DNA of 64,000 bases from Ignavibacteriales bacterium (lineage in GTDB: Bacteria > Bacteroidota > Ignavibacteria > UBA10030): assembly GCA_016194505.1 (NCBI GenBank), contig JACQBK010000016.1, positions 5,654-69,653 on the forward strand, read 5' to 3'. The notes beneath the pieces were generated by a model. It saw only the letters and a program-made list of their open reading frames with translations, did no database searches and had not been told where the DNA came from. Positions 23,164 through 51,027 of this stretch are shown piece by piece. Both the position numbers and the translations under genes were made by a program. The first letter of the stretch is position 1. Each line of letters begins with the position of its first letter.

Positions 23164-23235
23164 AAAGCTCCCGGGGTTGCTCACAAGAAATACCCTTCTG
23201 CATTTTCCCAACAAAGGTTCCTTCGGAACACCCTC

Positions 23236-24348
23236 TTATTCGGGTGCTCCTCCCCAAGAGATTAAAAGAGTAAAGCGTAATGTTTCTCCGAGTGGATGCT
23301 GTTCTTCAAATGCACTAATGTAACTAAAATCAAAACCGTAAATGTCATACCGAACGCCAGCGCCGAACGTCGCAAACTTACGATTACCCGCCTGAGGGTC
23401 TTCATAGAAGTACCCTACACGCAAGGCAACCCATTTTTTATACCAATATTCGAGACCGGCTCCGGTGACAAACTCACGCATAATTTGATTGAAAGACTTG
23501 CCCGTCCACGTGGTGAAGATCGCCTTATAGAAAGGATCGTATGTTGAACCATCACCAGTCTTCTTCACAAGCAATTTATTAACGTCGAGGATACCGGTAA
23601 GGTTATTAAAGTCGCTTTCGATAATTTTATATGCAATTCCTAAACGCAGATAGGTGGGGAGCGCATCGGCTTGAGCCTTATCAATGTACGTCAATGCGGG
23701 ACCTAAATTCGAAATGTTCATCCCGGCGCTGAAGCGATCTCCCAAATCAATTCCCGTAAAGGGTATTGATGACGAACGGGGCCTATACAACAATCCGACA
23801 TCGAAACTAAAACCGGAGGCAATACCTTTCCCTTTTTCCTCAGCCGTTCCAAACGGCGCAAGATAACTGTAGATGAAACGCGCGTTAATGCCCAGAGCAA
23901 AACTTTCGGAAATTTTCGTAGCGTATCCCGCGGTAACCGCAAACTCGTACGCCTTAAAAGTCTCAATGACAGTGGGGTCAATTTCAGTTCTGTTGAATGA
24001 GCCGAGATTCAGATAGGTAATACTCGCGGCAACGGTGCCGTCCAGCTCGGGTACTTCTCTTCTATACACCAAATAATCAATGAAGAGATCGTCCAAGCGA
24101 AATGCCGGCAGCCAATTTGCATGAGAGACGCTGATTTCCTGCCCGTGTTGATACGCGAGACCGGCGGGATTCCAAAACAACGCGGAAGCATCATCTGCCA
24201 GAGCAACGCCCGCTTCTCCCATACCGCTCGCCCTTGAGTTCGGGGAAATTAACAGAAATGGCACTGCCGATGTGGTAACTTGAGCATTCAGCATTTCACT
24301 GGACGCCACGATCATAACCATCAGCGCAAACCCAACAAGATTCTTCAT
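23236..24348 (-). CDS. porV: Type IX secretion system outer-membrane channel protein PorV (LptO) family
   Basis: Signal peptide, then the PorV/PorQ signature ..ASGMGEAGVALADDASALFWNPAGL... About 370 aa with a FadL-like barrel. Sits downstream of PorU in the same orientation. Confidence 0.7.
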   Translation of the reverse strand: MKNLVGFALMVMIVASSEMLNAQVTTSAVPFLLISPNSRASGMGEAGVALADDASALFWNPAGLAYQHGQEISVSHANWLPAFRLDDLFIDYLVYRREVPELDGTVAASITYLNLGSFNRTEIDPTVIETFKAYEFAVTAGYATKISESFALGINARFIYSYLAPFGTAEEKGKGIASGFSFDVGLLYRPRSSSIPFTGIDLGDRFSAGMNISNLGPALTYIDKAQADALPTYLRLGIAYKIIESDFNNLTGILDVNKLLVKKTGDGSTYDPFYKAIFTTWTGKSFNQIMREFVTGAGLEYWYKKWVALRVGYFYEDPQAGNRKFATFGAGVRYDIYGFDFSYISAFEEQHPLGETLRFTLLISWGGAPE

Positions 24349-24454
24349 AACGCACATCCTCCAAATAAGAAATAGTTTCCGGCATCATCCCCTGCCAGAG
24401 TGAGTAAAATAGTCGTTTTTATAGTGATATTCAACAGTCGCCATTGAAGATTTA

Positions 24455-25129
24455 TTAATCAAGCACGTACTTCACACCAAATGAAGCCCCAAACGTATTG
24501 ATGCTGTTTATTGCGCTGTGGCCATAATACTTACCAACAAAATTGAATTTATACTGAAACTCCGTTCCAATAACGACCCCGCCTGGCATCGGCCAAGACA
24601 TTGTAGTCATAAAATACAGTGAGGGACATATAATACTTTCATCACGGCTAACCTGCCTACCTAAATTTAGCATACCTTCGTTCGAACTTGCATTATTTTG
24701 AGTAAAACTCGTTCCAACAATCCTCACATCGTGAACGGTTATCCATTCTAACCCAACTCCCGCCCCTACCGCGCTTATAGAACTCAAGCGTTCTAACAAA
24801 CCAACACCCAATGTAACATTGCTCCAGGAAAATGGACCTTGAACAACATTAATCCCTTGTGGATCTTGAAAAGTAACAGTCCAAAATTGATTTTGAGTTC
24901 GAAAATATTCGCCTCGTATGTTCAGCAAAAATTCTTTTCCCAGAGCAATATCCGTGAAAGCTGACAAAACAATATGATCGTTTATCTTTGAAGAATTATA
25001 TGTATTAGCATACCCAATGCGAAAACCTACTCCCGAGACGCTGACTGATAATTCATTTTCGCCTTGCTGGGCTTTTAAAACCGACGACACAAACAGCAAT
25101 GCTACGATAAAACCACGATGAGGGTTCAT
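24455..25129 (-). CDS. Small outer-membrane beta-barrel protein (PorT/OmpA-like family candidate)
   Basis: Signal peptide MNPHRGFIVALLFVSSVLKAQQ. 224 aa with alternating hydrophobic strands. Lies between porU and porV. Confidence 0.45.
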   Translation of the reverse strand: MNPHRGFIVALLFVSSVLKAQQGENELSVSVSGVGFRIGYANTYNSSKINDHIVLSAFTDIALGKEFLLNIRGEYFRTQNQFWTVTFQDPQGINVVQGPFSWSNVTLGVGLLERLSSISAVGAGVGLEWITVHDVRIVGTSFTQNNASSNEGMLNLGRQVSRDESIICPSLYFMTTMSWPMPGGVVIGTEFQYKFNFVGKYYGHSAINSINTFGASFGVKYVLD

Positions 25130-25199
25130 GATATCCTCCCTTAGTTAAGTGGCAGCGATGATGCAACATCGTGAATTAGAGTCGTATCAACTGAACCAT

Positions 25200-28100
25200 T
25201 TACCTTAGCACCGTAAGTTTTCCCAACACTTCGCTCGTAGAGCTTCGGTCGAGCGACTTTGCTATCACCTTATAAAAATAAACGCCGTTAGCGATTTCAT
25301 TACCATCCCGGTCCCGACCATCCCACGGAACTTGCACAAACCGATCTATTATAGATGGCGTGCTCAACGACTGAATCAACCTTCCTGCGATAGTATATAC
25401 TTTTATCTCTACATCTATAGGGTCTATGGAGGTTCGCTGGAATGTGAAGGTCGTTGTCCGGTTAAACGGATTCGGAAAATTGAAAACATTATGAATCGAA
25501 AACACGGACGAATCCCGAACTTCAAAATACGTGTCAGCGAAAGCTGGATTATTATACGTATCCCATGCCTTGACGGAGAGCGTATGCCGCCCTTCCGGCA
25601 AACTCGTAAGCGGATAGCGAACCTGGCCGCTTTGATAGGTATCCAATTTGCCCCGGTAAAAATCCGTCAGATCAAATGAGCGGGAATTATCCATCAACGC
25701 CTCAAGCCGGTGCCCTATGCCGGCAGTGGAGGTATTTATCCCGCTGCTATCCGTCAAGTCAACTACGAGCATCGCATTCGGTTTAACGACATCCCCTGCC
25801 CGGAATGACGGGTCATCGAGATGGATTGAGATTTTTGGACCCACAGTATCCACGCCGGCGTTAGCATTTCCGAAGATGGTAATGCTTTCCGTGTACCCGC
25901 TCGCATCGGTAGAATCGCTATACGCATACACCGCAATGCGCGAACGGCTATCGCCATAGGAAACATCTTTGGGCACAGGGAACGTTGATTTGAACAAGCC
26001 GTTCTTTACGGAAACCTCACCGCGATAAATGAGACTGCCATCTACTTCGAAATAATAATCATTGCCCCACTCCGGCACGAACACTTTTCGTTTTGCATCG
26101 AACACTTCAAGCAACGCGCGACCGTTAAACGTATCCCAGATGGTTCCATTGTTTTTTTTGAGCGCACCGTTCGCTGCAACACGTCCCAATGATGGGACGG
26201 TAATCAGTCTTGCCGTGCTCTGCCCGTTGATGCTATCCACTGTTGCCGTTGCGCGCGGCATAGCAAGCCGCATCGTTGGATCGGCGAGGAGATGGTGTTT
26301 TTGGTCATTGAGACGATTATAAATTTGCTTCGTCGCCCACATCGCATCTCCAAGGCGCACTACTTGCCCTTGAGTATTCTTCGGGAAAAAATAGCTATAC
26401 AAAGCGGCGTTCAATTGAAAATTGTCGTATGAATACACAACCCGAGCCGCCGTTACAACGCCAATGGCTCCGGTTTGCGGCATTGCCAACAACACCTCGC
26501 CGGCGCTTACTTCAAATGGATAATCATAGCGCGCGTAGTCGCACGTAGCGGCAACGACGAGGAATGGCTTACCTGTGTTTCTGATCTGGGAAAAACTCTC
26601 ATCCTTTGAAAATATTTTCTCGTGCGCCCACTGGTCGGGATTACCGTGTCCTGTATAATTGAGAATCAACGTTCCGCGATTGATTGCATCAATGATTGCT
26701 TGATTTGCAGTCGGCTTCCGGCGACCGGTTGATGTAATAACAGTGGGATATTCGACGATATAAATCTTATCTCTTTCAAAGCTTGCCGGCGTATAATCTC
26801 GTGCTATTTGCTCAGCCTGATCGGTATGGATAATCCCATCATCCCCACTGTTGGTTAACCCATCATCGGCAACAAAAGTGATTCTGTTGCGCCAAGGATC
26901 GAACGGCATGGCAGTCTCGTACGCGATAATCTTATCAACAACATCCTTTGCTTCTTTAGTCGAATGAACGGGCAATCGCCCGATAGGCAGAGAAATACGA
27001 TCCACATTAGGTGTCAGGAACACAAAAAAATCGTCGCTTGCAAGCGTAAGAATTTGATGGATAGAATTGAGCGATTCATACGGGAGGACCCAGTTCTTCA
27101 TCGAGCTTTTAATATTTTTATAGTCAAAATTGCCGGCGCCAAACAACAAAACATATTTTGGTCTGATTGTCCAGTTCGTCTGGGCATATTTTAGAAAATC
27201 CCTTATCGCCATCGGATCAATCATGCCGCAGGAAAATTCGTTGAAGATTTGCTCGGTATTAACGACAACAGTTTTTAACTGATCGTTTTTCTCGCGATGT
27301 GCTTTAAGCCGCTCGGCTTCGGAAAGAAAATCCGATGGGGCAATAATAATAAAATCCGCACCATCGGCAATGCCATGCAAATTTGAATTTGTAAGGCGTT
27401 TGGCATTTGTCGGCGTTTTATAGCCATTGGGCCCTACCACTGCAAACTCACGCACAGAACCAGCTACCTGCGGAACTTGAAATTTGACTATGGAAGTGTT
27501 CGCAGGATCAAAAACCAAATTCGTTATTTGCTTGACATTATTGTGCTGTGCAACATCGAAAGCATACACATCCGTACGCGACGAAAGATTTTTCAAATTG
27601 TATTCGATGGTTGCCGTCGTATCGGGCGAGGAGAATAATAAAAAATCGTTTACAGCTTCAAATCGCTGGCGATAGAGTATTTCAAACCAATCTACCCATC
27701 CTTTTGCGGACGAGCTACCTCTCCCAAACAGCACGCGCAATATACTCCTGTCGTTTGGGATTGCACCAAAACGATCATACGTCATAACACCGGTTTGATA
27801 TGCTTTCTCATTTTCGATGGAGTTTACATCAATGGGATATGTGAGAGCCAGAAATCCAAACGGTTGGTTGTTTTCCTGAACACGAAACGTATCAATTGAT
27901 GTTGACTGGCTTAAAAAAGTAAAACGATACGTCATTGTTTTCGTCGCATCCACACCCGGAAGAAGCGTCGTATACACAGCTGAGGTTGTCACGTCGTCAA
28001 ATTTTCTACCAATCCACTGGCGACCGGAGTTCACGAGATTTTCCGCCTCTTCTTCCACAAATACTTTGCCCTGAAAATCCGTTGGATTATAGACACCCGG

Positions 28101-29180
28101 AAGATTCGTCGAGGAGATTGTAGCCATATTTTTCCCGCGCCCTGCTCCACCGTAAGTCAGGAAATAATAATTCGTCTCCGTGTAGTGGTTAATATAGTGG
28201 AAATACGTTTTTGCGCTTGGATCGTATTTCCACCCGCGGGTTGATTTGCCGTAAAAAAGAACAAAGTCGTCTGAATCGAACACGCCATTGCCATTCCTAT
28301 CTACAACGAGGCGCGGAATTTCGTCAATCCCATCAGGTCTTGCCGCGGTAAGGTCTTCCGGAAGCTCCTCTCCCCCGTTACCAAATATTCTTATAGAATT
28401 AATATTCCCGATAGCGCTCAAAGGAATATTTGCCGCCGCAAAAAACGCTTGGTCAATCTTATAGATGCCGTTCTCCTTGACTTCCATTCTGTACCACTCC
28501 CCCTGCGCAAGCGGTGAATCTGAAACTACTTTGCTCGACTTCGCCAAACTTCGCTCCGAAGAGAACGACGGTAACTGATTCTTCAAAAACATGGAAGCCG
28601 AAAAATCTGGGCTTGCCGCTCCCAAAAATTCTATCCTCACGACGATACGAGTATACACGCGCACAGCGTTGCGCCCAAGAGCAACCTGGACGGGATAAAA
28701 CTTCAACGTGCCAAGAGTAAACCCTCGCGATTCCCCCACATCAGAAAGCTCGACAACATCTTTTGGCAAGAAATCCATAGTCTTGAATTTTTCGTCCGGA
28801 GCCGTATAACGAGGCACCACTCCAAACTCTTTGTCTTTTATGAACTGAGGGCGGGTTGCCGGTCGGACTCCAGTAACATCATGGTAATCCACTGCAAGAA
28901 CTTGGATTATATATTTATCGGAAGGGAGATTGACCAAGCCGGCGCGGAACGGCAACATGGGCGACCCTTGTTCACCATAAACAGTCACTGCTCCTTGGAA
29001 ATTAAAGCGCGTGTATTCTACTCCATCGTTGCCGGAAACAGCTGCATTGGTGAACACAGGCACGAATTCCACCACCAACGAGCGGGAGTCTTCGCTGAGG
29101 ACGCGCATGTCCGTACCCGACTGACCATACGAAGTCGCGCAGAAACCTATAAGAAGCACTAAAAAATTAATTTTCCTCAT
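25200..29180 (-). CDS. porU: Type IX secretion system C-terminal signal peptidase/sortase PorU (peptidase C25, gingipain-like) with its own T9SS C-terminal domain
   Basis: About 1330 aa. The signal peptide starts MRKINFLVLLIGFCATSYGQ (M35 of the ORF). Contains a C25-like caspase-fold region. The C-terminal ..FNFPNPFNRTTTFTF...KVYTIAGRL..GKLTVLR matches the T9SS C-terminal domain. porV is adjacent. Confidence 0.7.
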   Translation of the reverse strand: MRKINFLVLLIGFCATSYGQSGTDMRVLSEDSRSLVVEFVPVFTNAAVSGNDGVEYTRFNFQGAVTVYGEQGSPMLPFRAGLVNLPSDKYIIQVLAVDYHDVTGVRPATRPQFIKDKEFGVVPRYTAPDEKFKTMDFLPKDVVELSDVGESRGFTLGTLKFYPVQVALGRNAVRVYTRIVVRIEFLGAASPDFSASMFLKNQLPSFSSERSLAKSSKVVSDSPLAQGEWYRMEVKENGIYKIDQAFFAAANIPLSAIGNINSIRIFGNGGEELPEDLTAARPDGIDEIPRLVVDRNGNGVFDSDDFVLFYGKSTRGWKYDPSAKTYFHYINHYTETNYYFLTYGGAGRGKNMATISSTNLPGVYNPTDFQGKVFVEEEAENLVNSGRQWIGRKFDDVTTSAVYTTLLPGVDATKTMTYRFTFLSQSTSIDTFRVQENNQPFGFLALTYPIDVNSIENEKAYQTGVMTYDRFGAIPNDRSILRVLFGRGSSSAKGWVDWFEILYRQRFEAVNDFLLFSSPDTTATIEYNLKNLSSRTDVYAFDVAQHNNVKQITNLVFDPANTSIVKFQVPQVAGSVREFAVVGPNGYKTPTNAKRLTNSNLHGIADGADFIIIAPSDFLSEAERLKAHREKNDQLKTVVVNTEQIFNEFSCGMIDPMAIRDFLKYAQTNWTIRPKYVLLFGAGNFDYKNIKSSMKNWVLPYESLNSIHQILTLASDDFFVFLTPNVDRISLPIGRLPVHSTKEAKDVVDKIIAYETAMPFDPWRNRITFVADDGLTNSGDDGIIHTDQAEQIARDYTPASFERDKIYIVEYPTVITSTGRRKPTANQAIIDAINRGTLILNYTGHGNPDQWAHEKIFSKDESFSQIRNTGKPFLVVAATCDYARYDYPFEVSAGEVLLAMPQTGAIGVVTAARVVYSYDNFQLNAALYSYFFPKNTQGQVVRLGDAMWATKQIYNRLNDQKHHLLADPTMRLAMPRATATVDSINGQSTARLITVPSLGRVAANGALKKNNGTIWDTFNGRALLEVFDAKRKVFVPEWGNDYYFEVDGSLIYRGEVSVKNGLFKSTFPVPKDVSYGDSRSRIAVYAYSDSTDASGYTESITIFGNANAGVDTVGPKISIHLDDPSFRAGDVVKPNAMLVVDLTDSSGINTSTAGIGHRLEALMDNSRSFDLTDFYRGKLDTYQSGQVRYPLTSLPEGRHTLSVKAWDTYNNPAFADTYFEVRDSSVFSIHNVFNFPNPFNRTTTFTFQRTSIDPIDVEIKVYTIAGRLIQSLSTPSIIDRFVQVPWDGRDRDGNEIANGVYFYKVIAKSLDRSSTSEVLGKLTVLR

Positions 29181-29796
29181 AAAAAATAAAAAAGCCGAAC
29201 GAGGTGAAACAAACGCCCTCATTCGGCTAAACTTTTTATACCGGAGCAAAACCGAATTTGTAAAAGGCGTGTGTTGTAACATCTACTAATCCTGAACGAA
29301 ACTCCTTACACATTAGTTCAGGTACTAACCTTTAACAAATACGTTATTCTTTTACTCCGTTTGGTAATAAATGTTGGGATAAAGATACGCATTCGCTCTA
29401 AAATTGTCAAGGGAATTTTTCTTTTGTAGAACTCCAACGCAACCCCAGAAGCCGCCATCGGAAAAAACCAAATTCTGCCCTCTCCTGTCGAACGACTGTT
29501 TGATGAAGAGCACACAGTATCCGCGTAGTGTCCTCCGCGCTCCTTCGTTATTCATCATGTGTGTCGGAGAATCAATAATCATCGTGGATTTTCTGGGGCG
29601 CTTTTGAGGAGCGGGCAGACTTCAAATTCATCGCGGCAAAATAAACTCCAGAAATACTGCCATATCATATTTTGGAATACAAACCCTGTAAGCTTTGTAT
29701 AATAGCACATAAGGCGGCTTATGCGATTTCAATTGCTTATGAGCTAAAAAAATGGTATATTTCTTCGATTTTTTATGAATTTTACGTTTGGAGCCT

Positions 29797-40795: not shown

Positions 40796-41353
40796 CTACA
40801 CCTTTACAAATTCATGTTCGTCGTAGCGTACGACCAATACCGGACAAGGAGCATAGCGAACAACCTTTTCTGCGGTACTGCCGAATAAAATATGTTCCAC
40901 ACCCGTATGTCCGTGTGTTGCAATGATAATCAGGTCGAACGATGCTTCACGGGCAAAGCGATCAATTTCATAGAAAGCTTTACCGGTACGAATAACATAA
41001 TCAGCCTTGACCTTCTTACCTATTTCCTTTTTAATTAAGCCCTCTAATTCCTCCGCTCCTTTTTTACGCAGTTCGTCTTCAACGCTTGGGAATCCCACTT
41101 GACCGAAGCTGAAATCAGCGGGATAGACGGCTGGCTCGACAACATAGATGAGATTGATAGAAGCGTTGAATTGCCGTGCAAAGGGGATGGCGTACTTTAA
41201 CGCATTTTTGGAATGCTCCGAAAAATCTATCGGAACCAGAATGCGTTTGAGTTCGATGGGGCGCGCTTTAGCGGGACTTACCGGCTTTTTGCGCTGAAGG
41301 TCTCTTTTTTTCGCTGTTGATTTTCCGCGAAGGATCTGTTTTCTCTTTGCCAT
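40796..41353 (-). CDS. Universal stress protein (UspA family)
   Basis: ..ILVPIDFSEHSKNALKYA....IIIATHGHTGVEHILFGSTAEKVVRYAPCPVLVV (ATP-binding G-x2-G-x9-G-S/T). The start overlaps the upstream gene. Confidence 0.65.
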   Translation of the reverse strand: MAKRKQILRGKSTAKKRDLQRKKPVSPAKARPIELKRILVPIDFSEHSKNALKYAIPFARQFNASINLIYVVEPAVYPADFSFGQVGFPSVEDELRKKGAEELEGLIKKEIGKKVKADYVIRTGKAFYEIDRFAREASFDLIIIATHGHTGVEHILFGSTAEKVVRYAPCPVLVVRYDEHEFVKV

Positions 41354-41903
41354 CGTTTTCCCTTTCATGGTGAGGTTGTAGATGGTCGAGTTGATTCTTC
41401 AATTTCGAAAGCTCTCGGTCCGTTTTACGAAGCCGTTCCGCAACGATTTCTGCAAGTTTTAAAACGATTTTGATGCCAAGGTCGCGTTTCTTTTCAATCA
41501 ATTCAAAGAGATCGGGGCGGAAAAAACCGATGAGGGAACATTTCGTTCGGCATATCGCGGTTGCAGAACGGGGCGATTCGTCCAGTAACGCTAACTCTCC
41601 GAAGAAATCTCCTTCGGAAAGAACCGCAAGCTCTTTTTCACCGCCGTCTTTTCCTGCAATCGTAATGGAAATCTCCCCCTCTTGAACGATGTACATTCCC
41701 AACCCGGGATCACCCTGGAAGAACACAGGCTCCGCAGGTTGGTATTCTCGTTTATGGACGATTGCGGCAACTTCTTTCAGCTCACGCGCCGAAAGGTTCG
41801 CAAATGCAGGGACTTTACTGAGCAGAGACTCGGTTGAACCTTCGCTCACGCCCCGTCCCGAAAAAATATTCTTCCAGATTGCGCTCTCAACAACCTTGGT
41901 CAC
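41268..41903 (-). CDS. Cyclic-nucleotide-binding (cNMP) domain protein with a Lys/Arg-rich C-terminal tail
   Basis: CAP-family cNMP-binding motifs ..FFQGDPGLGMYIVQEGEISI....GDFFGELALLDESPRSATAI. There is no HTH domain. The 3' ~90 nt overlap the Usp gene in another frame. Confidence 0.65.
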   Translation of the reverse strand: MTKVVESAIWKNIFSGRGVSEGSTESLLSKVPAFANLSARELKEVAAIVHKREYQPAEPVFFQGDPGLGMYIVQEGEISITIAGKDGGEKELAVLSEGDFFGELALLDESPRSATAICRTKCSLIGFFRPDLFELIEKKRDLGIKIVLKLAEIVAERLRKTDRELSKLKNQLDHLQPHHERENDGKEKTDPSRKINSEKKRPSAQKAGKSR

Positions 41904-41915
41904 GATATTCCTCTG

Positions 41916-42839
41916 TTAATCGTAAACGAAATTCAGCCAATTGTATTTATCGTTCGCATCATTCACAACATTAAAGAAGGCTTTTTGCAACGAACGCGTG
42001 ACGGGACCCGGCTTTCCTTCCCCTACAACAATTTTATCAATAGCGTGAATGGGCGTAATTTCTGCCGCGGTTCCCGTAAAGAACACCTCATCGGCAGTAT
42101 ACAACATTTCCTTCGGAATATTCATTTCGCGGACTTCATAACCGGCATCTGTTGCCAACGTCATCACACTGACGCGCGTAATACCGGGCAATAACGCCGC
42201 AACAAGAGGGGGTGTATAGATAGTTTTATCTCTCACGAGGAAAATATTTTCCCCGCTTCCCTCACTGATGTTGCCAGAAGCATCGAGCGCTATTCCTTCG
42301 GTAAAGCCTCGCGCAATCGCTTCCATTTTGATCAATTGAGAGCTTAAATAGTTTCCACCGGATTTTGCCATGGTGGGTATCGTGTTCGGAGCGGGTCTTT
42401 GCCATGAAGAAACACACACCTCAATTCCTTTTTCGAGCGCTTCTTTGCCAAGGTACGCGCCCCACTCCCACACTGCAATCATGACATCAACGGGGCAACC
42501 CAGTGGATTAACTCCAACATCACCGTACCCGCGATAGGCTACCGGCCGGATGTAACATGCTTTTAATTTATTTGCGCGGATCGTTTCTTTTACCGCTTCT
42601 TCCAGTTGTTTCATCGTATAGGGAATTGGTGCGCGATAAATTTTTGTCGAATCATATAATCGTCTCAGATGTTCTTCAAGGCGGAAAATGGCGGAGCCGC
42701 GTTTCGTTTCGTAGCAGCGGATACCTTCGAACCAGCCTGATCCGTAATGAATAACATGCGAAAGCACATGAATCTTCGCATCGTCCCAATTGACGAGTTT
42801 CCCGTTCATCCAGATTTTGTCAACTTTATTGATTGGCAT
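41916..42839 (-). CDS. ilvE: Branched-chain amino acid aminotransferase (class IV PLP)
   Basis: ..[35 protein letters not shown].., ..[14 protein letters not shown]... It abuts the GNAT gene stop. Confidence 0.8.
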
Positions 42840-42878
42840 GATAATTCTTTCTCCAATGTTAAATGTTAAAGAGAACAA

Positions 42879-43997
42879 CTAAATCTCACGTTCGTACAAC
42901 CGATAACGTTTCGAAATTTTCCCGTTCATCATGTCCGCCGCCTTCACCATCCGCACGTTATCTTCGAGTACCCAGCTCGCTTCACCATACCGGTAACCGA
43001 GCCGTTTAGCTTTGACTGCAGTTTCATAAAACAACACCCCTGCTGCGCCTGTGGCGGCATATTCCGGAAGCACTCCGAGAGCAATAATGCGTACGATGTT
43101 AATCTCTTTTTTGTGCAAAAACAACCGCGCAAGTCCGGGAAGCAATCGCCCCTTCGTATTATATTTAAGGGGAATATTAATATCCGGCACCGAAAGCGCA
43201 AAACCGATTGGTTTACCTTTTACTTCGGCAAATATTATCAGATCTGGCACAACAACCGGTTTCAGGTCCGCCGCCATAGCATCAATTTCTGCGCCAGTCA
43301 TGGGAACGGCTCCCCAATTTTTTTCCCACGCCCTATTGTATAATTCTTTGATCAATCCAACATCGCTATCGAAGTTTTTCATGTTTAAGGAACGAAAGGT
43401 CAGCTTATTCCTTTCTTTGACAAGATTGTTGACCCGTTCCAATTTTTCGGAATAGACCGTATCTTGACTAAGCAGATACGCATATAAATCTTTGGACTTT
43501 TTAAAGCCGTATGCTTCGATAAGCTTAGGATAATATTCGGGATTATACGGCATTAACAACGTAGGTGTAACGTTGAATCCTTCAACTAAAAGACCATACT
43601 CGTCATTCACGGAAGGGTTAGCCGGACCGCGCATTGCGGTTGCCCCTTTTTGCTTCAGGTATGATTTTGCCGTATCGAACAATGCATTCGCTACATGCTG
43701 GTCATTGACACACTCAAAGAACCCAAAAAAACCCATGTTTTCATTGTGCTCTTTGTTATGGTTGTGATTAACAATAGCCGCAATACGCCCTACCATCGCG
43801 CCATCGCGCTCGGCAATAAAAAACTCCGCATCGGCATGCTGATAAAACGGATTTTTCTTTTTGTCCATCAGCTTACGCCGATCCATCCACAAAGGAGGCA
43901 CCCAATAGGGATTGCCTTCGTAGATAGTCCAAAGAAATCTGATAAACTGATCCCGGTCCTTTGTTGTTGTAACAGGTCGTATTCGGATTTCACTCAT
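42879..43997 (-). CDS. Large (372 aa) GNAT/FemAB-like N-acyltransferase. Candidate bacterial ceramide synthase (bCerS-like) or N-acyl-sphingoid/capnoid acyltransferase
   Basis: No classical GNAT motif was called from sequence. Its size fits FemAB-like N-acyltransferases. Its position is between a serine-palmitoyltransferase-like gene and ilvE, opposite an epimerase-family reductase. The functional call is inference from context. Confidence 0.5.
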   Translation of the reverse strand: MSEIRIRPVTTTKDRDQFIRFLWTIYEGNPYWVPPLWMDRRKLMDKKKNPFYQHADAEFFIAERDGAMVGRIAAIVNHNHNKEHNENMGFFGFFECVNDQHVANALFDTAKSYLKQKGATAMRGPANPSVNDEYGLLVEGFNVTPTLLMPYNPEYYPKLIEAYGFKKSKDLYAYLLSQDTVYSEKLERVNNLVKERNKLTFRSLNMKNFDSDVGLIKELYNRAWEKNWGAVPMTGAEIDAMAADLKPVVVPDLIIFAEVKGKPIGFALSVPDINIPLKYNTKGRLLPGLARLFLHKKEINIVRIIALGVLPEYAATGAAGVLFYETAVKAKRLGYRYGEASWVLEDNVRMVKAADMMNGKISKRYRLYEREI

Positions 43998-44095
43998 AGT
44001 ATCTATAGTGTTAAAAAATTAGTAGAAGTAAAAAAGCCGCAGCGACTTTGCACAGCGGCTTTCGAACTTTAAGAACATACGAATAAACACCGTCA

Positions 44096-45310
44096 TCAGT
44101 TAATAACGCCAAGTCTCTTTCCGACAACAGAAAAAACATCGAGGATTTTATCAAGATGTTTATCCTCATGGGTGGACATGTAGCTTGTGCGGAGCATTTC
44201 CATGCCCGGAGGCACACCGGGACGAATAAACGCATTGACAAACACTCCGGCATCAAACAAATGCTTCCACATAAGGAGAACTTTGTCTGTATCACCAATG
44301 ATAACCGGAACAACCGCTGAGTCATGCTCTCCCACGCGGAAGCCCAGGCTCTTAAGCCCCTCCCTCATTTTCCGAGCGTTGCGCATAAGTTTATCAATAA
44401 ACTCCGGGTGAGTTTCCAATACATCAAGAGCGGCAAGCGCCGATGCTACGGAAGCCGGCGTCGGGCTTGCGCTGAACATCAATGCCGAGGCTTGATGCTT
44501 TAGAAAATTGATGACCACCTTATCACCGACGACGAAGCCTCCTAACGAAGCGAACGTTTTACTGAACGTTCCCATCGTGAGATCCGTTTCGGCTTCGAGA
44601 TTATAATGGCTTGCGGTGCCGCGCCCACCTTTTCCGATGACACCTACGGCGTGGGCATCATCAACCAGTACTCGGGCATTATATTTTTTCGCAATCTTCA
44701 CCATGTCGGGAAGATTAACAATTTCACCGGACGTGCTGAAGACGCCGTCCGAGACAATCAGTTTTCCGCTCTCCAACGGCAACTTAGAAATGACTGTTTC
44801 GAGATGTTGCATATCGTTATGTTTATAGCGCACAATGGTTTGCGAATTTTGGTCTATCAACGCATTTGCTCCATTTGCCATAAGGTTGCCAACGACGATG
44901 CAGGCGTGGTTGTCCTTATCAGAAACGACAAAGTCACCATGTTGAACAAGCGTTGGGATAATTCCCTGCGCTGTCTGATACCCCGTGCTGAAGAGAAGGC
45001 AATCCTCCTTGCCGAAAAATTTGGCGAGGCGCGCTTCTAATTCGACGTGAAGATCGAGAGTGCCGGTCAGGTAACGGGAACCGGAACAGCCGCTGCCATA
45101 TTTTTTCACAGCGTTAATGGCTGCTTCTTTAACCTTCGGGTGGGTTGTAAGTCCAAGGTAATTGTTCGATCCGGCCATAATAATTTTTCTGCCTTCGATC
45201 TGAACAACCGGTCCTTCGCTCTCTTCAATGGCATGGAAATAAGGATAGTTTCCGCTGGCTTTTGCTTCATCTGCCCGCGTAAAGTTACGGCATTTGTCAA
45301 AGAGGTCCAA
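44096..45310 (-). CDS. PLP-dependent alpha-oxoamine synthase of the SPT/KBL/BioF family. Candidate serine palmitoyltransferase or cysteate-C-fatty-acyltransferase
   Basis: ..[15 protein letters not shown]..; PLP-Lys motif [14 protein letters not shown]; ..[16 protein letters not shown]... 404 aa. Confidence 0.75.
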
Positions 45311-45410
45311 TTCGTGCTCCGCTCGTTAGTGAATTTCATACTCCCCCGCTACTTTGCTAATCAAAACTTTTTTGAATATACTTCAATAAGCCAAGAAAGT
45401 CAACGAACAG

Positions 45411-46418
45411 TTTGAGAAGATTTATGGAGGTCGCATCGCGAACGCACTTGTAACAGGCGGCACAGGTTTTATAGGAAGCCACACGGTCGAATTGCTCCTA
45501 AAACACGGATTGAATGTCCAATGCCTCATCCGCCCCGGTCGAAAAAATCTCGGCTGGCTTGAAGGATTGCCGGTGGAAGTGTTGGAAACAAATCTGCTCG
45601 ATCCTCACTCCCTCAAGCCAATTGCTCAAGGGGCGGATTATATCTTTCACATCGCAGGCGTCACAAAAGCCAAGCATCAGAAGGATTTTTTTGAAGGAAA
45701 TGTTGCCGCCACAAAAAGCCTGTTAGAAGCGGCTAAAAACAATACCCGGTTGAAGAAATTTTGTCTTGTGAGCAGTCTCACTGCCGCAGGTCCAAGTAAG
45801 GATGGCTCGCCGCTCCACGAGGAATCACCTTGCAATCCTATTACCGCCTATGGAAGGTCAAAATTAGAAGCCGAGAACATTTGCCGGTCGTACTCTCACA
45901 ACATCCCGATAGTTATTATTCGCCCGCCGGCGGTCTATGGTCCCCGCGACCAAGACATCTTAGAGATTTTTCGATGGGTGGTAAAAGGATTTATGCCCAT
46001 TATCGGCGGAAGACAAAAAACCCTCAGCTTCGTTTACGCGAGCGATTTAGCCCGCGCAATTATGGAGGCGACTCTCTCGGAAAAGACAAAAGGAGAAACA
46101 TACTTCGTTGCCGACCAGCCGATGTATCTTTTTACTGATTTAGTCAAGCGGCTTGCGGCGATTGCCGGCAAAAGAACAACTCCCCTGCCCATTCCCTCGC
46201 CCGCTCTTTATTCTGCGGCGGCTGTTGCGCAATTTTTCTCTCACTTTTCCTCCAAGCCATCCGTACTTAATATCGAAAAGGCACGCGATTTATTACAGCT
46301 TCACTGGGTGTGCAGTTCAAAAAAAATAGAACAGCATATCGGCTTTACATGTACCACATCAATTGACGATGGCTTGCGCAATACGTATCATTGGTATAAA
46401 GAACAAGGATGGCTGTGA
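45411..46418 (+). CDS. NAD(P)-dependent epimerase/dehydratase-family (extended SDR) reductase. Candidate ceramide/3-ketosphinganine reductase (CerR/CapC-like)
   Basis: The Rossmann motif ALVTGGTGFIGSHTVELLL lies upstream of the track ORF start (TTG 45492) in the same frame. The likely start is TTG 45411, as no in-frame ATG exists. The catalytic motif YGRSK is YxxxK. Confidence 0.6.
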   Translation, partial: FEKIYGGRIANALVTGGTGFIGSHTVELLLKHGLNVQCLIRPGRKNLGWLEGLPVEVLETNLLDPHSLKPIAQGADYIFHIAGVTKAKHQKDFFEGNVAATKSLLEAAKNNTRLKKFCLVSSLTAAGPSKDGSPLHEESPCNPITAYGRSKLEAENICRSYSHNIPIVIIRPPAVYGPRDQDILEIFRWVVKGFMPIIGGRQKTLSFVYASDLARAIMEATLSEKTKGETYFVADQPMYLFTDLVKRLAAIAGKRTTPLPIPSPALYSAAAVAQFFSHFSSKPSVLNIEKARDLLQLHWVCSSKKIEQHIGFTCTTSIDDGLRNTYHWYKEQGWL

Positions 46419-46449
46419 CGGTGTCTCTTAAACCAAAGGAGAATGGTTC

Positions 46450-46824
46450 GTGGTGAATATTATACTTGTGTTTTTAGGAGGCGGCATTGGCGCAGCAGCG
46501 CGCTATTGGCTTTCCGGGGTTGTGTACCAAAAAGTGAGCACGGATTTTCCGTACGGCACGCTGACAGTCAATGCAATAGGATGCCTCCTCATCGGTATTT
46601 TGATGGCAGCTATGGAAGAACGATTTCTCGTCCAGCCTTCTCTTCGTGTATTTCTCACCATCGGGATTCTCGGCGGCTTTACGACGTTCTCGACGTTCAG
46701 TTTCGAAACCATTGCACTTCTCAGAGACGGCGAAATTCTTTACGCGCTGGTGAATATCTTCACAAGCATATTTGTGTGTTTATTCGGGACGTGGGTTGGA
46801 ATGCAAATAGGAAAATTATTGTAA
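46450..46824 (+). CDS. crcB: Fluoride ion channel CrcB/Fluc
   Basis: GTG start. ..GIGAAARYWLS..TLTVNAIGCLLIG..GILGGFTTFSTFSFE.. are canonical CrcB motifs. Confidence 0.8.
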   Translation: MVNIILVFLGGGIGAAARYWLSGVVYQKVSTDFPYGTLTVNAIGCLLIGILMAAMEERFLVQPSLRVFLTIGILGGFTTFSTFSFETIALLRDGEILYALVNIFTSIFVCLFGTWVGMQIGKLL

Positions 46825-46844
46825 TTAAGAAAGGTATTCTATCT

Positions 46845-47198
46845 ATGAAACTTTCGGGCGAAGGCAAGTTACTGAGGATTTTCCTCGGAGAATCCGATAA
46901 GGTTGACCACAAACCGCTTTACGAAGCAATCGTTCGGGCAGCGAAAACCAACGGGCTTGCCGGGGCAACAGTGCTCAGAGGCGTGGAGGGTTTTGGAGCG
47001 GATAGCCGAGTCATTCACACGGCAAAAATCTTGCGCCTCTCTGAAGACTTACCCATCGTTGTGGAAATAGTTGATAAAGAAGAGACGATTAAAGCGTTCT
47101 TGCCGGAAGTGGATAAACTCTTTGAAGCCGCAGGCTGCGGCGGCATGATGACGCTTGAAAAAGCGGAAGTGATTCGGTACTCGACGGGGAAAAAATAA
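46845..47198 (+). CDS. DUF190 (PII-like) protein commonly paired with crcB
   Basis: MKLSGEGKLLRIFLGESDKVDHKPLYEAIVRAAKTNGLAGATVLRGVEGFG.. matches DUF190. The track ORF 46443..47198 is a chimera; its 5' part overlaps crcB out of frame. Confidence 0.7.
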   Translation: MKLSGEGKLLRIFLGESDKVDHKPLYEAIVRAAKTNGLAGATVLRGVEGFGADSRVIHTAKILRLSEDLPIVVEIVDKEETIKAFLPEVDKLFEAAGCGGMMTLEKAEVIRYSTGKK

Positions 47199-47230
47199 TT
47201 CGGATGATTATCTCCACCTCGAACTATGCC

Positions 47231-48229
47231 TTATGCAAACAACTGCCTCAAAAAAGAAACCAACCAATAAGAAACCGCGGCAACAACCGCCGAGCAGGGA
47301 ATCGTCAATACCCACGCGGTGACAATCCTTCCCGCTAACCCCCATCGGACTGCTGAGACCCGCTTCGTTGCACCCACACCCATAATCGCGCCCGTAATGG
47401 TGTGCGTGGTGCTTACTGCTATGCCAAAAAATGCTGTGAGAAGCAGCGTAATACCGCCGGCAGTCTCCGCGCAAAATCCGCCTGATGCCTTCAGCTTCGT
47501 AATCTTCTGACCCATGGTTTTGACGATTCTCCACCCGCCGAACAACGTGCCAAGCGCAATTGCAAAATGGGAGCTAATAATCACCCACCAAGGCACTTCA
47601 AATGTTTTAAGATAGCCTGAGGTCACAAGCAGGCTTGTGATAATACCCATGGTCTTTTGGGCATCATTTGTTCCATGCCCCAAGCTATAAAGAGCCGCAG
47701 AGCCGAGCTGCAGTTTCCGGAACAAGCCATTAATTTTGGATGAAGAGCGTTCATGAAACATCCACATTAAAATTACCATGAGCGTAAAGCCGATTGCCAT
47801 GCCCATTAATGGAGCAATTGCAATAAAGATTATCGTATTCGTCCAACCGCCAAGAAGAATAACGCCAAAGCCAGCCTTAGCAATTGCGGCGCCCCCGTAC
47901 CCCCCTATAAGAGCATGCGAAGAGCTTGTGGGGATGCCAAAATACCATGTAATGATATTCCAGGCGATTGCACCGGTCAGTCCGCTAAGAATAACATATT
48001 CATTTACTGCGGAAAGCTCAACGAGACCTTTTCCAATCGTTTTGGCAACGTGAACGTCGAAGAGAAAGGCGGCGATAAGGTTGAATGCCGCCGCCCACAT
48101 CACCGCCTTGCGGGGCGTGAGAACGCGGGTCGAAACAATTGTCGCTATTGAATTTGCTGAATCGTGGAAACCATTAAGAAAATCAAAAACGAACGCGACG
48201 AGGATGATAACAATGACAAGGGTTAGCAT
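47231..48229 (-). CDS. pit: Inorganic phosphate transporter, PiT family
   Basis: GFHDSANSIATIVSTR.. N-terminal PiT signature and the repeated GTNDAQKTMGII motif. Confidence 0.8.
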   Translation of the reverse strand: MLTLVIVIILVAFVFDFLNGFHDSANSIATIVSTRVLTPRKAVMWAAAFNLIAAFLFDVHVAKTIGKGLVELSAVNEYVILSGLTGAIAWNIITWYFGIPTSSSHALIGGYGGAAIAKAGFGVILLGGWTNTIIFIAIAPLMGMAIGFTLMVILMWMFHERSSSKINGLFRKLQLGSAALYSLGHGTNDAQKTMGIITSLLVTSGYLKTFEVPWWVIISSHFAIALGTLFGGWRIVKTMGQKITKLKASGGFCAETAGGITLLLTAFFGIAVSTTHTITGAIMGVGATKRVSAVRWGLAGRIVTAWVLTIPCSAVVAAVSYWLVSFLRQLFA

Positions 48230-48247
48230 GGAAGCTCGAATTCGATA

Positions 48248-48895
48248 TTAAGCGTGTTTGATATAAATGCCTTCAAGCACATTTGCCGCATCCTCGCATT
48301 TATCGGTTGCGGTCTCTAACCCTACGTAAATTTCTTTCAGTTTGATGATTTGGATGGGGTCTTTTTCATTCTCGAAGAGATCGGCAATCGCATGTTCGAA
48401 GACGGCGTCTGCTTGATTCTCATATTCATTCACCTTTTGGAACACTCGCTGCAGTTCTTCAGCTTTGTGAAGAGTGCGTAACAACGTAACGCCTTTGTAC
48501 AATTCGGTAATCGAAAGATGAAGAATATCCACAAGCTTAATCATCTGTTCAGGAAAACCCTTTAATTTGTACAAGGAAGTCCGGCTGGAACTGCCGTCAA
48601 TGTGGTCCATAATGTCATCAAGTGCGGATGTCAGCGAGTGAATATCTTCGCGGTCAAACGGCGTAACGAATGTGGCATTCAATTCCGAAAAAATATTATG
48701 AGTAACCGTATCGCCGTGATGCTCTAATTCCTGAATTTGCGCCACAATTTTGTCCCGATCTGCCGCTGTTTGAGTAAGGCAGAGTTCCTTAAAAAGTGTT
48801 GCCGCATCAATAAGATTCTGCGATGATTGTTCAAAAAACGAATAGAACTTCTCATCGTGCGGAATCAATTTTTGAATCAGTTGATCAAGTTTCAT
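48248..48895 (-). CDS. DUF47 (PhoU-like, YkaA/TIGR00153) phosphate-transport regulator paired with PiT
   Basis: Helical protein ..FYSFFEQSSQNLIDAATLFKEL.. immediately upstream of pit. This is the typical pit-ykaA pair. Confidence 0.75.
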   Translation of the reverse strand: MKLDQLIQKLIPHDEKFYSFFEQSSQNLIDAATLFKELCLTQTAADRDKIVAQIQELEHHGDTVTHNIFSELNATFVTPFDREDIHSLTSALDDIMDHIDGSSSRTSLYKLKGFPEQMIKLVDILHLSITELYKGVTLLRTLHKAEELQRVFQKVNEYENQADAVFEHAIADLFENEKDPIQIIKLKEIYVGLETATDKCEDAANVLEGIYIKHA

Positions 48896-48957
48896 ATTGT
48901 ATGCCTTTTAAGATAAGTTGAACGAAAGTGCAACCTATTATTTTAATTACAAATTGT

Positions 48958-49147
48958 CTCAAAAACTATCTTCGTTGCTGGAAGCGGGCTGAATCCCTTA
49001 TTTATTTTGTGTGCTGTCCCACCCCGACCTATCCCGTTGTACGGTTCCGTTCTTTGGAATCCCGCTCACTGAACGGAATCCAAAGAGCGGGAGATGCTGA
49101 AAAGCGCAAAGGTCGGGGTTATAGCCACGTCCTTTAGGACGTGGCTA
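48958..49147. repeat. REP/BIME-like multi-hairpin repeat (copy B), paralog of 14931-15147
   Basis: Same ctcaaaaactat 5' end. Near-identical ~95-nt core (ccccgacctatcccg..ggttccgttctttggaatcccgc..gaacggaatccaaagagcgggagatgctgaaaagcgcaaaggtcggggtt). It lacks the gcctgcggcaggc insert. The terminal hairpin gccacgtcc-ttta-ggacgtggc has compensatory changes relative to copy A. Confidence 0.55.
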
Positions 49148-49272
49148 CAATAACATTTGACACTTTATGGATTTTAACCCTCACAAAAAGTCTATAGAAA
49201 TCATTTTGGGGAAACTTATACTTTCCACGGCATCTCAGAGATGGCGGGAAAATGGTCAATTAAAGATTTCCG

Positions 49273-51027
49273 TCAGGGCAACCTCTCGAGCCTCTGCTTT
49301 AATTGGTTATATTCATCCCACATTTCGCTCGGCATCCGATTGCCGAATGAACCATAAAATGTATGTATCTCATTCATGGTATTCAGCCAGCCTGCTTTGT
49401 CAACAGATGTCAGTTCTTCCATCGTCCCCGGTTTCAATGTTAAACCTTCGACATCAATCTCGTCGGCAGTCGGTAAATACCCGATGGCAGTTTCCTGCGC
49501 TTTGCCCCCGCCGTGAACTCGCGCCAAAATCCATTTAAGCACGCGGATGTTATCCCCATAGCCGGGCCAATAGAATTTTCCTTCTTTATCTTTACGGAAC
49601 CAATTCACGCGGAAAATGAGCGGAGGTTTTTTCAGCTTTTTGCCTATATCCAGCCAATGGCAAAAATAATCTCCCATATTGTATCCGCAGAACGGCAGCA
49701 TCGCCATAGGGTCGCGGCGAACAACACCAACTGCACCAGTTGCAGCAGCGGTCGTCTCTGCACCCATACTGGAACCTAAAAACACCCCATGCTGCCAGTT
49801 GAATGCCTGCATCACCAGTGGCACAACTGTGGAGCGTCGGCTTCCCCAAATAATTGCTGAAATTGGAACGCCTTTCGGGTCTTCCCAATGCTTTGAAATT
49901 GTCGGGCATTGTTTGGCAGGCGCAGTAAAACGAGAATTAGGATGCGCGGCATTTCCTCGTGCACTCTCCCACTTGCCGCCTTGCCAATCTATAAGTCCAT
50001 GCGGTGGCTCCGTTCCCATTCCTTCCCACCACGGTTCTTTCGAAGGAGTCATTGCCACGTTCGTAAAGATGGTATTTCGATTGATGGTATCAATAGCAAT
50101 GGGATTGGTGGAATTGCTTGTTCCGGGCGCCACACCAAAGAATCCGGCTTCGGGATTGATAGCGTGCAATTGCCCTTCCTCGTCAATGTGCATCCAAGCG
50201 ATATCATCACCCACTGTCCAGACTTTGTATCCTTGTTCCGCCATCGTGGAAACCATCATGGCAAGATTGGTTTTGCCGGATGCGCTTGGGAACGCCGCCG
50301 CCATATACGTTACTTTGCCCGATGGATCCTCCAACCCGATAATCAGCATGTGCTCTGCCATCCATCCTTCTTGCCGAGCCATGTAACTGGCAAGGCGAAG
50401 TGCGAAGCATTTCTTTCCAAGCAGCGCATTGCCACCGTAACCTGAGCCGATGCTCCAAACGAGCTTCTCTTCCGGGAAGTGCATAATGAAGCGCCTCTCT
50501 GGAGAAAGATCACCAAGAGAATGCAAACCGGGGACAAAATTTTCGGAACTGCCTAAGTGCTCCAATGCAACATTCCCCATCCGTGTCATGATCCGCATGT
50601 TTGCCGCAACATACGCGCTATCTGTTATCTCAACACCGACTTTACTGTATGGCGAGCCGACAGGACCCATCAAATAAGGAACTACATACATCGTGCGCCC
50701 CTTCATGGAACCATCAAACAATTTGCTTACTCGTTCTTTGGCTTCTTTGGGGTGCATCCAGTTATTGGTGGGACCGACATCGTCTTTCTTTTCGGTGCAA
50801 ATAAAAGTAAGGTTTTCTGTTCGGGCAACGTCGCTGGGGTGACTTCGATGGAGGTAGCAGTTGGGATAGGTTTTTTGATTTAACTCTATCAACGTGCCAT
50901 CGCCTACCATGATCTGGATAAACTTATTGTATTCCTCTTCCGAGCCATCGCACCAATGCACGCGGTCGGGTTTCGTAAGCCGGCTACATTCATCAACCCA
51001 TTGTTGCAAAGCAGAATTTCTCACCAT
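49273..51027 (-). CDS. pckG: Phosphoenolpyruvate carboxykinase (GTP)
   Basis: 584 aa. ..VVPYLMGPVGSPYSKVGVEITDSAYVAANMRIMTRMG.. and the kinase-1a region ..AAAFPSASGKTNLAMM.. are typical of GTP-PEPCK. Confidence 0.9.
   Translation of the reverse strand: MVRNSALQQWVDECSRLTKPDRVHWCDGSEEEYNKFIQIMVGDGTLIELNQKTYPNCYLHRSHPSDVARTENLTFICTEKKDDVGPTNNWMHPKEAKERVSKLFDGSMKGRTMYVVPYLMGPVGSPYSKVGVEITDSAYVAANMRIMTRMGNVALEHLGSSENFVPGLHSLGDLSPERRFIMHFPEEKLVWSIGSGYGGNALLGKKCFALRLASYMARQEGWMAEHMLIIGLEDPSGKVTYMAAAFPSASGKTNLAMMVSTMAEQGYKVWTVGDDIAWMHIDEEGQLHAINPEAGFFGVAPGTSNSTNPIAIDTINRNTIFTNVAMTPSKEPWWEGMGTEPPHGLIDWQGGKWESARGNAAHPNSRFTAPAKQCPTISKHWEDPKGVPISAIIWGSRRSTVVPLVMQAFNWQHGVFLGSSMGAETTAAATGAVGVVRRDPMAMLPFCGYNMGDYFCHWLDIGKKLKKPPLIFRVNWFRKDKEGKFYWPGYGDNIRVLKWILARVHGGGKAQETAIGYLPTADEIDVEGLTLKPGTMEELTSVDKAGWLNTMNEIHTFYGSFGNRMPSEMWDEYNQLKQRLERLP

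Follow-up and report, generated by a model that had tools for sequence, protein, structure and literature searches.

The question raised by this locus is whether three adjoining genes in a 64,000-nucleotide stretch from the genome of an uncultured Ignavibacteriales bacterium (assembly GCA_016194505.1, contig JACQBK010000016.1, positions 5,654 to 69,653 of the forward strand; the whole stretch is called the window below) form a pathway for a sphingolipid. A preliminary description, made from the sequence without database searches, had recognized in them the three-enzyme logic of bacterial ceramide synthesis, Spt, bCerS and CerR, and had considered sulfonolipid synthesis equally possible. In the Caulobacter crescentus system, Spt forms 3-ketosphinganine, bCerS N-acylates it and CerR reduces the 3-keto group (PMC11087976, PMC11324152); the passages of PMC11087976, PMC11324152 and PMC9386255 that take up Olea-Ozuna 2021 and Stankeviciute 2022 give the genes as CC_1162 (Spt), CC_1154 = CCNA_01212 (CerS/bCerS) and CC_1164 = CCNA_01222 (CerR). 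The comparisons described here bear out the three-enzyme reading, through full-length homology to the proteins of the Sphingomonas cluster and of the Escherichia coli yghO cluster, the grouping of the synthase with known Spts and the linkage of the three genes across phyla. The locus thus very probably encodes the core bacterial route to (dihydro)ceramide. It consists of the following features, in window coordinates.

44096..45310, minus strand: spt, serine palmitoyltransferase-like alpha-oxoamine synthase, 404 amino acids, TTG start with GGAG 6 nt before it
42879..43997, minus strand: bcerS, N-acyltransferase of the bacterial ceramide synthase type (YghO / CC_1154 family), 372 amino acids, predicted tandem GNAT fold
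45435..46418, plus strand: cerR, ceramide reductase-type extended SDR, 327 amino acids from ATC 45435 or 332 amino acids from ATT 45420
45311..45434, no strand: spt/cerR divergent control region with two back-to-back sigma-70-like promoters, predicted

All genes named in the preliminary description were recovered where it had placed them by the listing of open reading frames (ORFs) and by family scans, with the exception of the SDR start. The genes spt and bcerS lie on one strand with a gap of 98 nt between them, so that the N-acyltransferase of 372 amino acids is indeed downstream of the synthase, and cerR is divergent. The acyltransferase is 100% identical to HY088_01395, an NCBI protein from a metagenome-assembled genome (MAG).

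The synthase had been recognized by its GTFSK motif. It matched the Pfam family Aminotran_1_2, and residue 251 in this motif is the lysine that carries the pyridoxal 5'-phosphate (PLP). The top NCBIfam model was SerpalmtaseCFB with 471.6 bits (equivalog cut-off 640); the other scores were 360 for the BetaP Spt model (cut-off 500), 355.9 for a BioF/Kbl-related model, 354.8 for bioF, 344.4 for KBL and 308.9 for the AlphaP Spt model (cut-off 670). The score was under the equivalog cut-off of every NCBIfam model matched, and the enzyme appears to be a divergent Spt member beyond the trusted range of the NCBIfam model. In a search of PDB sequences, the top match was the serine palmitoyltransferase (SPT) of Sphingobacterium multivorum (3a2b, 372 bits), relative to which the window enzyme carries an insertion of 10 residues. 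Scores for the other solved enzymes were about 268 bits for Sphingomonas SPT, 234-259 for KBL, 234 and 214 for cysteate acyltransferases, about 169 for BioF, 158-168 for ALAS and about 120 for CqsA. Identity to the Sphingomonas Spt was 38% (E = 1e-90).

An alignment of 65 synthases was produced, comprising the window enzyme, 58 synthases adjoining a GNAT gene, the Spts of S. multivorum, Sphingomonas and E. coli, the N-terminal synthase domain of a metagenomic fusion protein (P0210), and KBL and BioF of E. coli. Lys251, His135, Arg374 and His220 were invariant in it; column 49 was Asn in 63 sequences and Tyr in two, and column 218 was Asp in 60 and Glu in the remaining five. The window enzyme has all the residues that mark an Spt, namely Lys251 for PLP, His135 for stacking on PLP, Asn49 and Arg374 for carboxylate binding, Asp218 and His220. 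In a neighbour-joining tree, which was distance-based, without bootstrap and with few outgroups, the window enzyme and the GNAT-linked synthases fell together with the three reference Spts (S. multivorum, Sphingomonas, E. coli), apart from KBL and BioF of E. coli. The grouping with KBL or BioF that the preliminary description had named as the outcome fatal to its proposal was therefore seen neither in the NCBIfam and PDB scores nor in the tree.

The acyltransferase was less readily named from curated libraries. Library scans gave a weak match to the Pfam family Acetyltransf_1, and no NCBIfam model and no PDB sequence was matched in the library scans and the PDB sequence search. The protein is predicted to have a GNAT-superfamily acyltransferase fold with two GNAT domains in tandem. 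Its family is large, with 8839 representatives after clustering at 50%, and 1643 of these at E<=1e-30. Annotated relatives were found by tblastn on a plasmid collection. Among them was E. coli YghO, with 33% identity (E = 5e-71, residues 4-372 against 8-380), whose gene has as neighbours a fatty acyl-AMP ligase, an epimerase-family protein, an acyl carrier protein (ACP), an aminotransferase and lptF/lptG paralogues. Another was the N-acetyltransferase of a Sphingomonas parapaucimobilis cluster, with 34% identity over the full length (E = 1e-75); the gene order there is NAD(P)H-binding protein in the CerR position, acyl carrier protein, class I/II aminotransferase (Spt), ATP-binding protein, lptF, lptG, desaturase, N-acetyltransferase. 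A homologue in Roseomonas lies among genes for LptF/G paralogues, a nucleotidyltransferase, an acylglycerol-kinase-family protein and a CDP-alcohol phosphatidyltransferase-family protein. According to PMC9386255, yghO (ECD_02850) and Swit_3908 are counterparts of CC_1154, the N-acyltransferase needed for dihydroceramide, and ECD_02852 is the counterpart of CC_1164 (CerR). Natural fusions were also found among metagenomic proteins: P0210 and P0214 join an alpha-oxoamine synthase to the GNAT protein, and P0241 joins the GNAT protein to a fatty acyl-AMP ligase, the lengths being 780 amino acids for the synthase-GNAT type and 940 amino acids for the other. In the course of these searches the sphingolipid-type cluster was seen to be complete in many E. 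coli strains (locus L086), beside the glc operon, as already noted in PMC9386255, and two records filed as plasmids, NZ_CP141089.1 and NZ_OL790696.1, were seen to be whole E. coli chromosomes.

The third protein matched the Pfam family Epimerase and has the NAD(P) motif TGGTGFIGS (G8, G11, G14), Ser113/114 and Tyr139-x3-Lys143. Over the full length it was 30% identical to the epi protein of the E. coli yghO cluster (E = 1e-45) and 29% identical to the Sphingomonas protein in the CerR position (E = 9e-39). A search of two complete E. coli chromosomes gave a single match at E<=1e-20 in each, and this was the epi gene, about 2 kb from the yghO match (2,922,675 for the SDR against 2,925,693 for yghO in one, 757,251 against 760,263 in the other). 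The SDR therefore singles out the CerR counterpart among all extended SDRs of E. coli. GNAT and SDR genes also adjoin in Rubrobacter, Streptomyces, Klebsiella, Rahnella and Pseudomonas replicons, as found in the search of the plasmid collection.

Linkage of the three genes was then assessed over a wider range. Species-representative genomes were scanned with an alignment of 12 GNAT sequences, and 80 loci were obtained from Ignavibacteria, Melioribacteraceae, Kapaibacteria, Chlorobiota, Gemmatimonadota, Acidobacteriota, Zixibacteria, Calditrichota, Anaerolineae, Caldisericaceae, Desulfuromonadaceae and others. By tblastn with the window proteins, a synthase was found at <=3 kb from the GNAT gene in 64 of the 80 loci, and an SDR at <=3.5 kb in 55. 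The order of the genes varied. The SDR was divergent from synthase-GNAT in 33 loci, the order synthase-GNAT-SDR occurred in 19 loci, all from Gemmatimonadota, with the GNAT stop and the SDR start overlapping as GTGA, SDR-synthase-GNAT occurred in two and SDR...GNAT-synthase in one. At least four gene orders are thus spread over Ignavibacteria, Gemmatimonadota, Acidobacteriota, Calditrichota, Zixibacteria and Desulfuromonadaceae, and since the linkage has outlasted so much rearrangement, the trio is taken to be a functional unit. Synteny with a relative of 70% identity was not accepted as evidence of linkage, because the neighbourhood is identical there over 17 kb and is uninformative. The module can also be plasmid-borne: the 122-kb plasmid pAUEa of Aureispira anguillae, a cultured member of the Saprospiraceae, has the same layout as the window, with the SDR divergent from Spt-GNAT (L097, 2329-6158).

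De novo clustering of the neighbours showed a gene for a PAP2_3 membrane protein 3' of cerR in 20 loci, 17 from Gemmatimonadota, two from Acidobacteriota and one unclassified (L070); an example is L046 9821-10807. A PAP2 gene homologous to it is present in Bacteroides finegoldii (L096 6999-7964), where it overlaps the last part of the CerR-like gene. The PAP2_3 protein is a candidate for a head-group transferase acting on ceramide. The family, PF14378, is presumably that of the yeast inositol-phosphorylceramide synthase Aur1, and the Gemmatimonadota protein gave no match in the PDB sequence search.

The start of cerR required separate consideration. The ORF listed for the SDR (45492-46418, TTG) starts past the Rossmann GxxGxxG and so lacks this motif, which is present in frame 5' of it as ALVTGGTGFIGSH. 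No ATG, GTG or TTG was found in frame before the motif, back to the preceding stop, the sequence upstream reading ...GGRIANALVTGGTGFIGSH, and the motif would be in the product only if translation starts at a non-canonical ATC or ATT. A candidate is ATC 45435, which stands 4 nt after GGAGG (45426-45430). The pattern GGAGG-N4-ATC, followed by GCx, is shared at this position by the window, two relatives of 91-93% identity (L093 and L095) and L004; L005 has GGAG-N5-ATT. More distant cerR orthologues have the usual ATG, GTG or TTG, 5-10 codons before GxxGxxG; the gene call on record for L093, of 332 amino acids, equals a start at ATT 45420 of the window. It is likely that cerR begins at ATC 45435, and the conserved pattern suggests a real non-AUG start, possibly with low translation. 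An out-of-frame ATG at 45424, which opens an ORF of 9 codons (45424-45453) overlapping the cerR start, was considered as the start or as an upstream ORF and was rejected, being confined to the closest relatives and absent from L004 and L005. If cerR begins there, the region between the divergent genes measures about 124 bp and not the 100 bp of the preliminary description. An epimerase-family reductase divergent from spt was rightly proposed there, and only its start coordinate was wrong.

Several points weigh against assigning the locus to ceramide synthesis. The synthase is below all NCBIfam Spt equivalog cut-offs (471.6 against 640), and serine specificity is therefore not guaranteed; use of alanine or glycine would yield 1-deoxy or related bases. 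The acyltransferase is outside every curated NCBIfam model, its sole Pfam match being the weak one to Acetyltransf_1. The lack of a canonical start makes a cerR pseudogene conceivable, although the pattern conserved in five genomes speaks otherwise. The tie to the characterised Caulobacter CerS and CerR is indirect, through published orthology and the synteny in Sphingomonas and E. coli, and for the present organism the evidence is sequence comparison. In a further alternative, the three genes would be neighbours without a functional relation, the synthase serving threonine or biotin metabolism as a KBL/BioF-type enzyme, the acyltransferase being a generic acetyltransferase and the SDR acting as a sugar-nucleotide epimerase. 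The generic Pfam names would allow this, and the top NCBIfam match of the SDR was HpnA, although with 115 bits this is far under the cut-off of 367. We give it next to no probability and regard it as refuted, as far as comparisons of sequence can reach, by the separation of the synthase from KBL and BioF, by the linkage across phyla in shuffled orders together with the natural fusions, and by the specific homology of all three proteins to components of sphingolipid clusters.

The two remaining alternatives concern the substrate of the synthase. A sulfonolipid or capnine pathway, with the synthase acting as a cysteate-C-fatty acyltransferase (SulA/CapB) and with reduction and N-acylation as the later steps, has the same overall enzyme logic, and SulA/CapB share with the window synthase the alpha-oxoamine synthase fold and the PLP chemistry; the lineage also belongs to the FCB group, where sulfonolipids occur. 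The diagnostic position is residue 281. In the work of Radka et al. (PMC9304779), the active site of SulA differs from that of Spt solely in Lys281, a position at which Spt has Ala, and the K281A protein is inactive. The numbering of the window enzyme is the same as that of A. finegoldii SulA (Lys251, residue 281), and the position was matched by counting from the PLP lysine (251+30), the alignment being one without SulA sequences. Residue 281 of the window enzyme is Ala, in the motif FSAS, as in the S. multivorum, Sphingomonas and E. coli Spts; the column is Ala in 62 of the 65 sequences, the exceptions being Thr in E. coli BioF, Asn in E. coli KBL and Val in one locus synthase. The solved cysteate acyltransferases also scored far lower than the SPT (234 and 214 against 372 bits), no gene for cysteate synthase was seen among the annotated ORFs of the window, and the partner genes belong to families of the ceramide pathway. 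A sulfonolipid product is therefore very improbable, and the even balance proposed in the preliminary description is disfavoured. Somewhat less improbable, but still poorly favoured, is the same chemistry with a substrate other than serine, for example alanine giving 1-deoxy-ceramides, so that the product would be a sphingolipid-like N-acyl amino alcohol and not a canonical dihydroceramide. Besides the sub-threshold scores, the 10-residue insertion relative to the S. multivorum enzyme would fit such a specificity, as would the abundance of 1-deoxyceramides where bacteria with 'Spt-like' proteins are plentiful (PMC11334938). Yet Asn49, His135, Lys251, Ala281 and Arg374 are all the same as in Spts, the solved structure that it matches best is that of a true serine palmitoyltransferase, and since characterised Spts already yield 1-deoxy bases as a side activity, the difference would be one of degree.

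In the (dihydro)ceramide route that we favour, Spt would carry out the PLP-dependent condensation of L-serine with a long-chain acyl thioester to 3-ketosphinganine, bCerS would place a second acyl chain onto the amino group, and CerR would reduce the 3-keto group with NAD(P)H. Because no dedicated ACP or acyl-ACP synthetase is present, the acyl donor would be acyl-CoA or an acyl-ACP of housekeeping metabolism, as for enzymes of the Bacteroidota type. What we infer, as distinct from what was observed, is the use of serine, the nature of the acyl donor, chain branching, the head group, and whether acylation precedes reduction, a point on which the literature disagrees even for Caulobacter.

A scan with the sigma-70 consensus gave one match for each gene in the divergent region. 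For cerR, TTGCTA is at 45354-45359 and TATACT at 45377-45382; for spt, TTGACT is at 45403-45398 and TATATT at 45380-45375, and the two -10 hexamers overlap. The hexamers coincide with the sole invariant blocks in an alignment of the intergenic region from five genomes, which are TTTGCT, AATATA and AAAGTCAA. Back-to-back promoters are accordingly placed here by prediction, and would drive spt and cerR. The same intergenic region in L093, at 91% identity, carries at about 4460-4600 an insertion of about 120 nt that the window does not have; a perfect inverted repeat, CTGTCACGG...CCGTGACAG, and the duplication of a flank give it the look of a small mobile insertion.

The Caulobacter pathway and the window share all three protein families and the predicted chemistry. 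The window trio is contiguous, whereas CC_1154 lies at a distance of eight locus tags from CC_1162, and unlike the Caulobacter pathway the window is without AcpR, AasR, LptF/G paralogues and head-group genes. The E. coli yghO cluster (lptF/lptG paralogues, spt, acpR, epi, fatty acyl-AMP ligase, yghO; ECD_02850-02854 in BL21) contains homologues of all three window proteins, but it works by the five-gene system of proteobacteria, in which an ACP and an acyl-AMP ligase take part, and the genes are arranged differently. The identities of the window proteins to those of Sphingomonas and E. coli are 29-38%. The dedicated ACP and acyl-ACP synthetase that stand beside spt in the five-gene dihydroceramide system were not found beside it in the window. 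AcpR of Sphingomonas and E. coli and the E. coli fatty acyl-AMP ligase gave no significant tblastn match in the whole window, although such genes may lie elsewhere in the genome, and tblastn over the window likewise gave no acyl-ACP synthetase, LptF/G paralogue, PAP2_3, desaturase or lipid-kinase homologue. Head-group, kinase and transport genes were not found in the window, and Pfam annotation of its remaining large ORFs showed no lipid-related family. The locus thus looks like a minimal core of the ceramide pathway. The closest counterpart of the synthase is the Bacteroidota Spt type (3a2b), and both are stand-alone, with no ACP dedicated to them. GNAT and SDR homologues with 29-32% identity to the window proteins occur in Bacteroides finegoldii; in Bacteroidales the three genes are scattered (PMC11334938), whereas a single divergent cluster is seen in the window, in most Ignavibacteria and in Aureispira.

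The pathway is already known, having been established in 2021-2022, and the window locus adds a member to it without changing how it is understood. Co-localised Spt, bCerS and CerR genes were surveyed in 1271 MAGs from 38 phyla in 2024 (PMC11334938), and PMC10667739, a lipidomics study citing Stankeviciute 2022, lists 'Ignavibacter' among the genera with the genetic potential and reports monoglycosyl ceramides correlated with amplicon sequence variants of Ignavibacteriales. The present results give proper names to three genes deposited in Ignavibacteriales MAGs as 'hypothetical protein' or with the generic labels 'GNAT' and 'epimerase', and add evidence that the Spt-bCerS-CerR module is widespread and often rearranged (Ignavibacteria, Gemmatimonadota, Acidobacteriota, Calditrichota, Zixibacteria, others and the Aureispira plasmid), a distribution that supports assigning environmental ceramides to the groups that carry it. 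Modest additions lie in the probable start of cerR at a conserved non-AUG codon, in the predicted back-to-back promoters, which are also conserved, and in an ilvE adjacency specific to the lineage.

Three neighbouring genes had also been named in the preliminary description.

41916..42839, minus strand: ilvE, branched-chain amino acid aminotransferase, 307 amino acids, ATG 42839, co-directional with bcerS
46450-46824, plus strand: crcB (Pfam CRCB, NCBIfam crcB)
46848-47198, plus strand: DUF190 gene (Pfam DUF190)

The aminotransferase passed the NCBIfam equivalog NF005146 with 445.8 bits (cut-off 279). It had been described as abutting the GNAT stop, but this was an artefact of the longest ORF (41916-42878) with a TTG start: the gene calls in the close relatives L094 and L095 give 307 amino acids from MPINK, which in the window is the ATG at 42839, with a gap of 39 nt to the bcerS stop. 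Its inclusion in the cluster was not upheld either, since it is a housekeeping equivalog and adjoins the GNAT gene only in Ignavibacteriales-like genomes and one Chlorobiota genome. The supply of iso-branched primers by ilvE is speculation. Going further, one might imagine that in Ignavibacteriales spt-bcerS-ilvE, with cerR opposite, form one regulatory unit that couples branched-chain transamination to iso-branched sphingoid bases, with CerR throttled by the conserved AUC/AUU start; we consider this unlikely, and if it were true, the ilvE-coupled unit would be a means, specific to the lineage, by which a free-living bacterium sets the type of chain and the ratio of the enzymes. In the Chlorobiota MAG of L051 (5830-7888), the GNAT gene and ilvE are adjacent, yet neither spt nor cerR is found inside the 17-kb locus.

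The crcB gene starts 31 nt past the end of the SDR and is followed by the DUF190 gene, in agreement with the gap of about 30 nt described before. Both genes stand beside cerR only in the closest relatives (L001-L004, L093); like ilvE, they are lineage-local neighbours outside the conserved module. Control by fluoride was considered as an explanation of the cerR-crcB-DUF190 arrangement and set aside, as the adjacency is lineage-local and no fluoride riboswitch was found; no Rfam family of any kind was detected in 41000-49500. A consensus promoter match is present at 46363-46391, 5' of crcB, and crcB and DUF190 may be expressed by read-through from cerR or from an internal promoter.

Two other regions of the window were noted in passing. 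The uvrA gene appears to be split into two ORFs at 6251-9153 on the minus strand, an N-terminal one at 7789-9153 and a C-terminal ABC one at 6251-7864, which overlap by 76 nt in different frames; either a frameshift or a fault of assembly would account for this. Genes of type IX secretion occupy 20053-29282 on the minus strand, with a PorV homologue at 23236-24357, a C25 (gingipain-family) peptidase of 1360 amino acids at 25200-29282, and an FG-GAP protein of 1053 amino acids at 20053-23214 that carries a Por_Secre_tail sorting domain.

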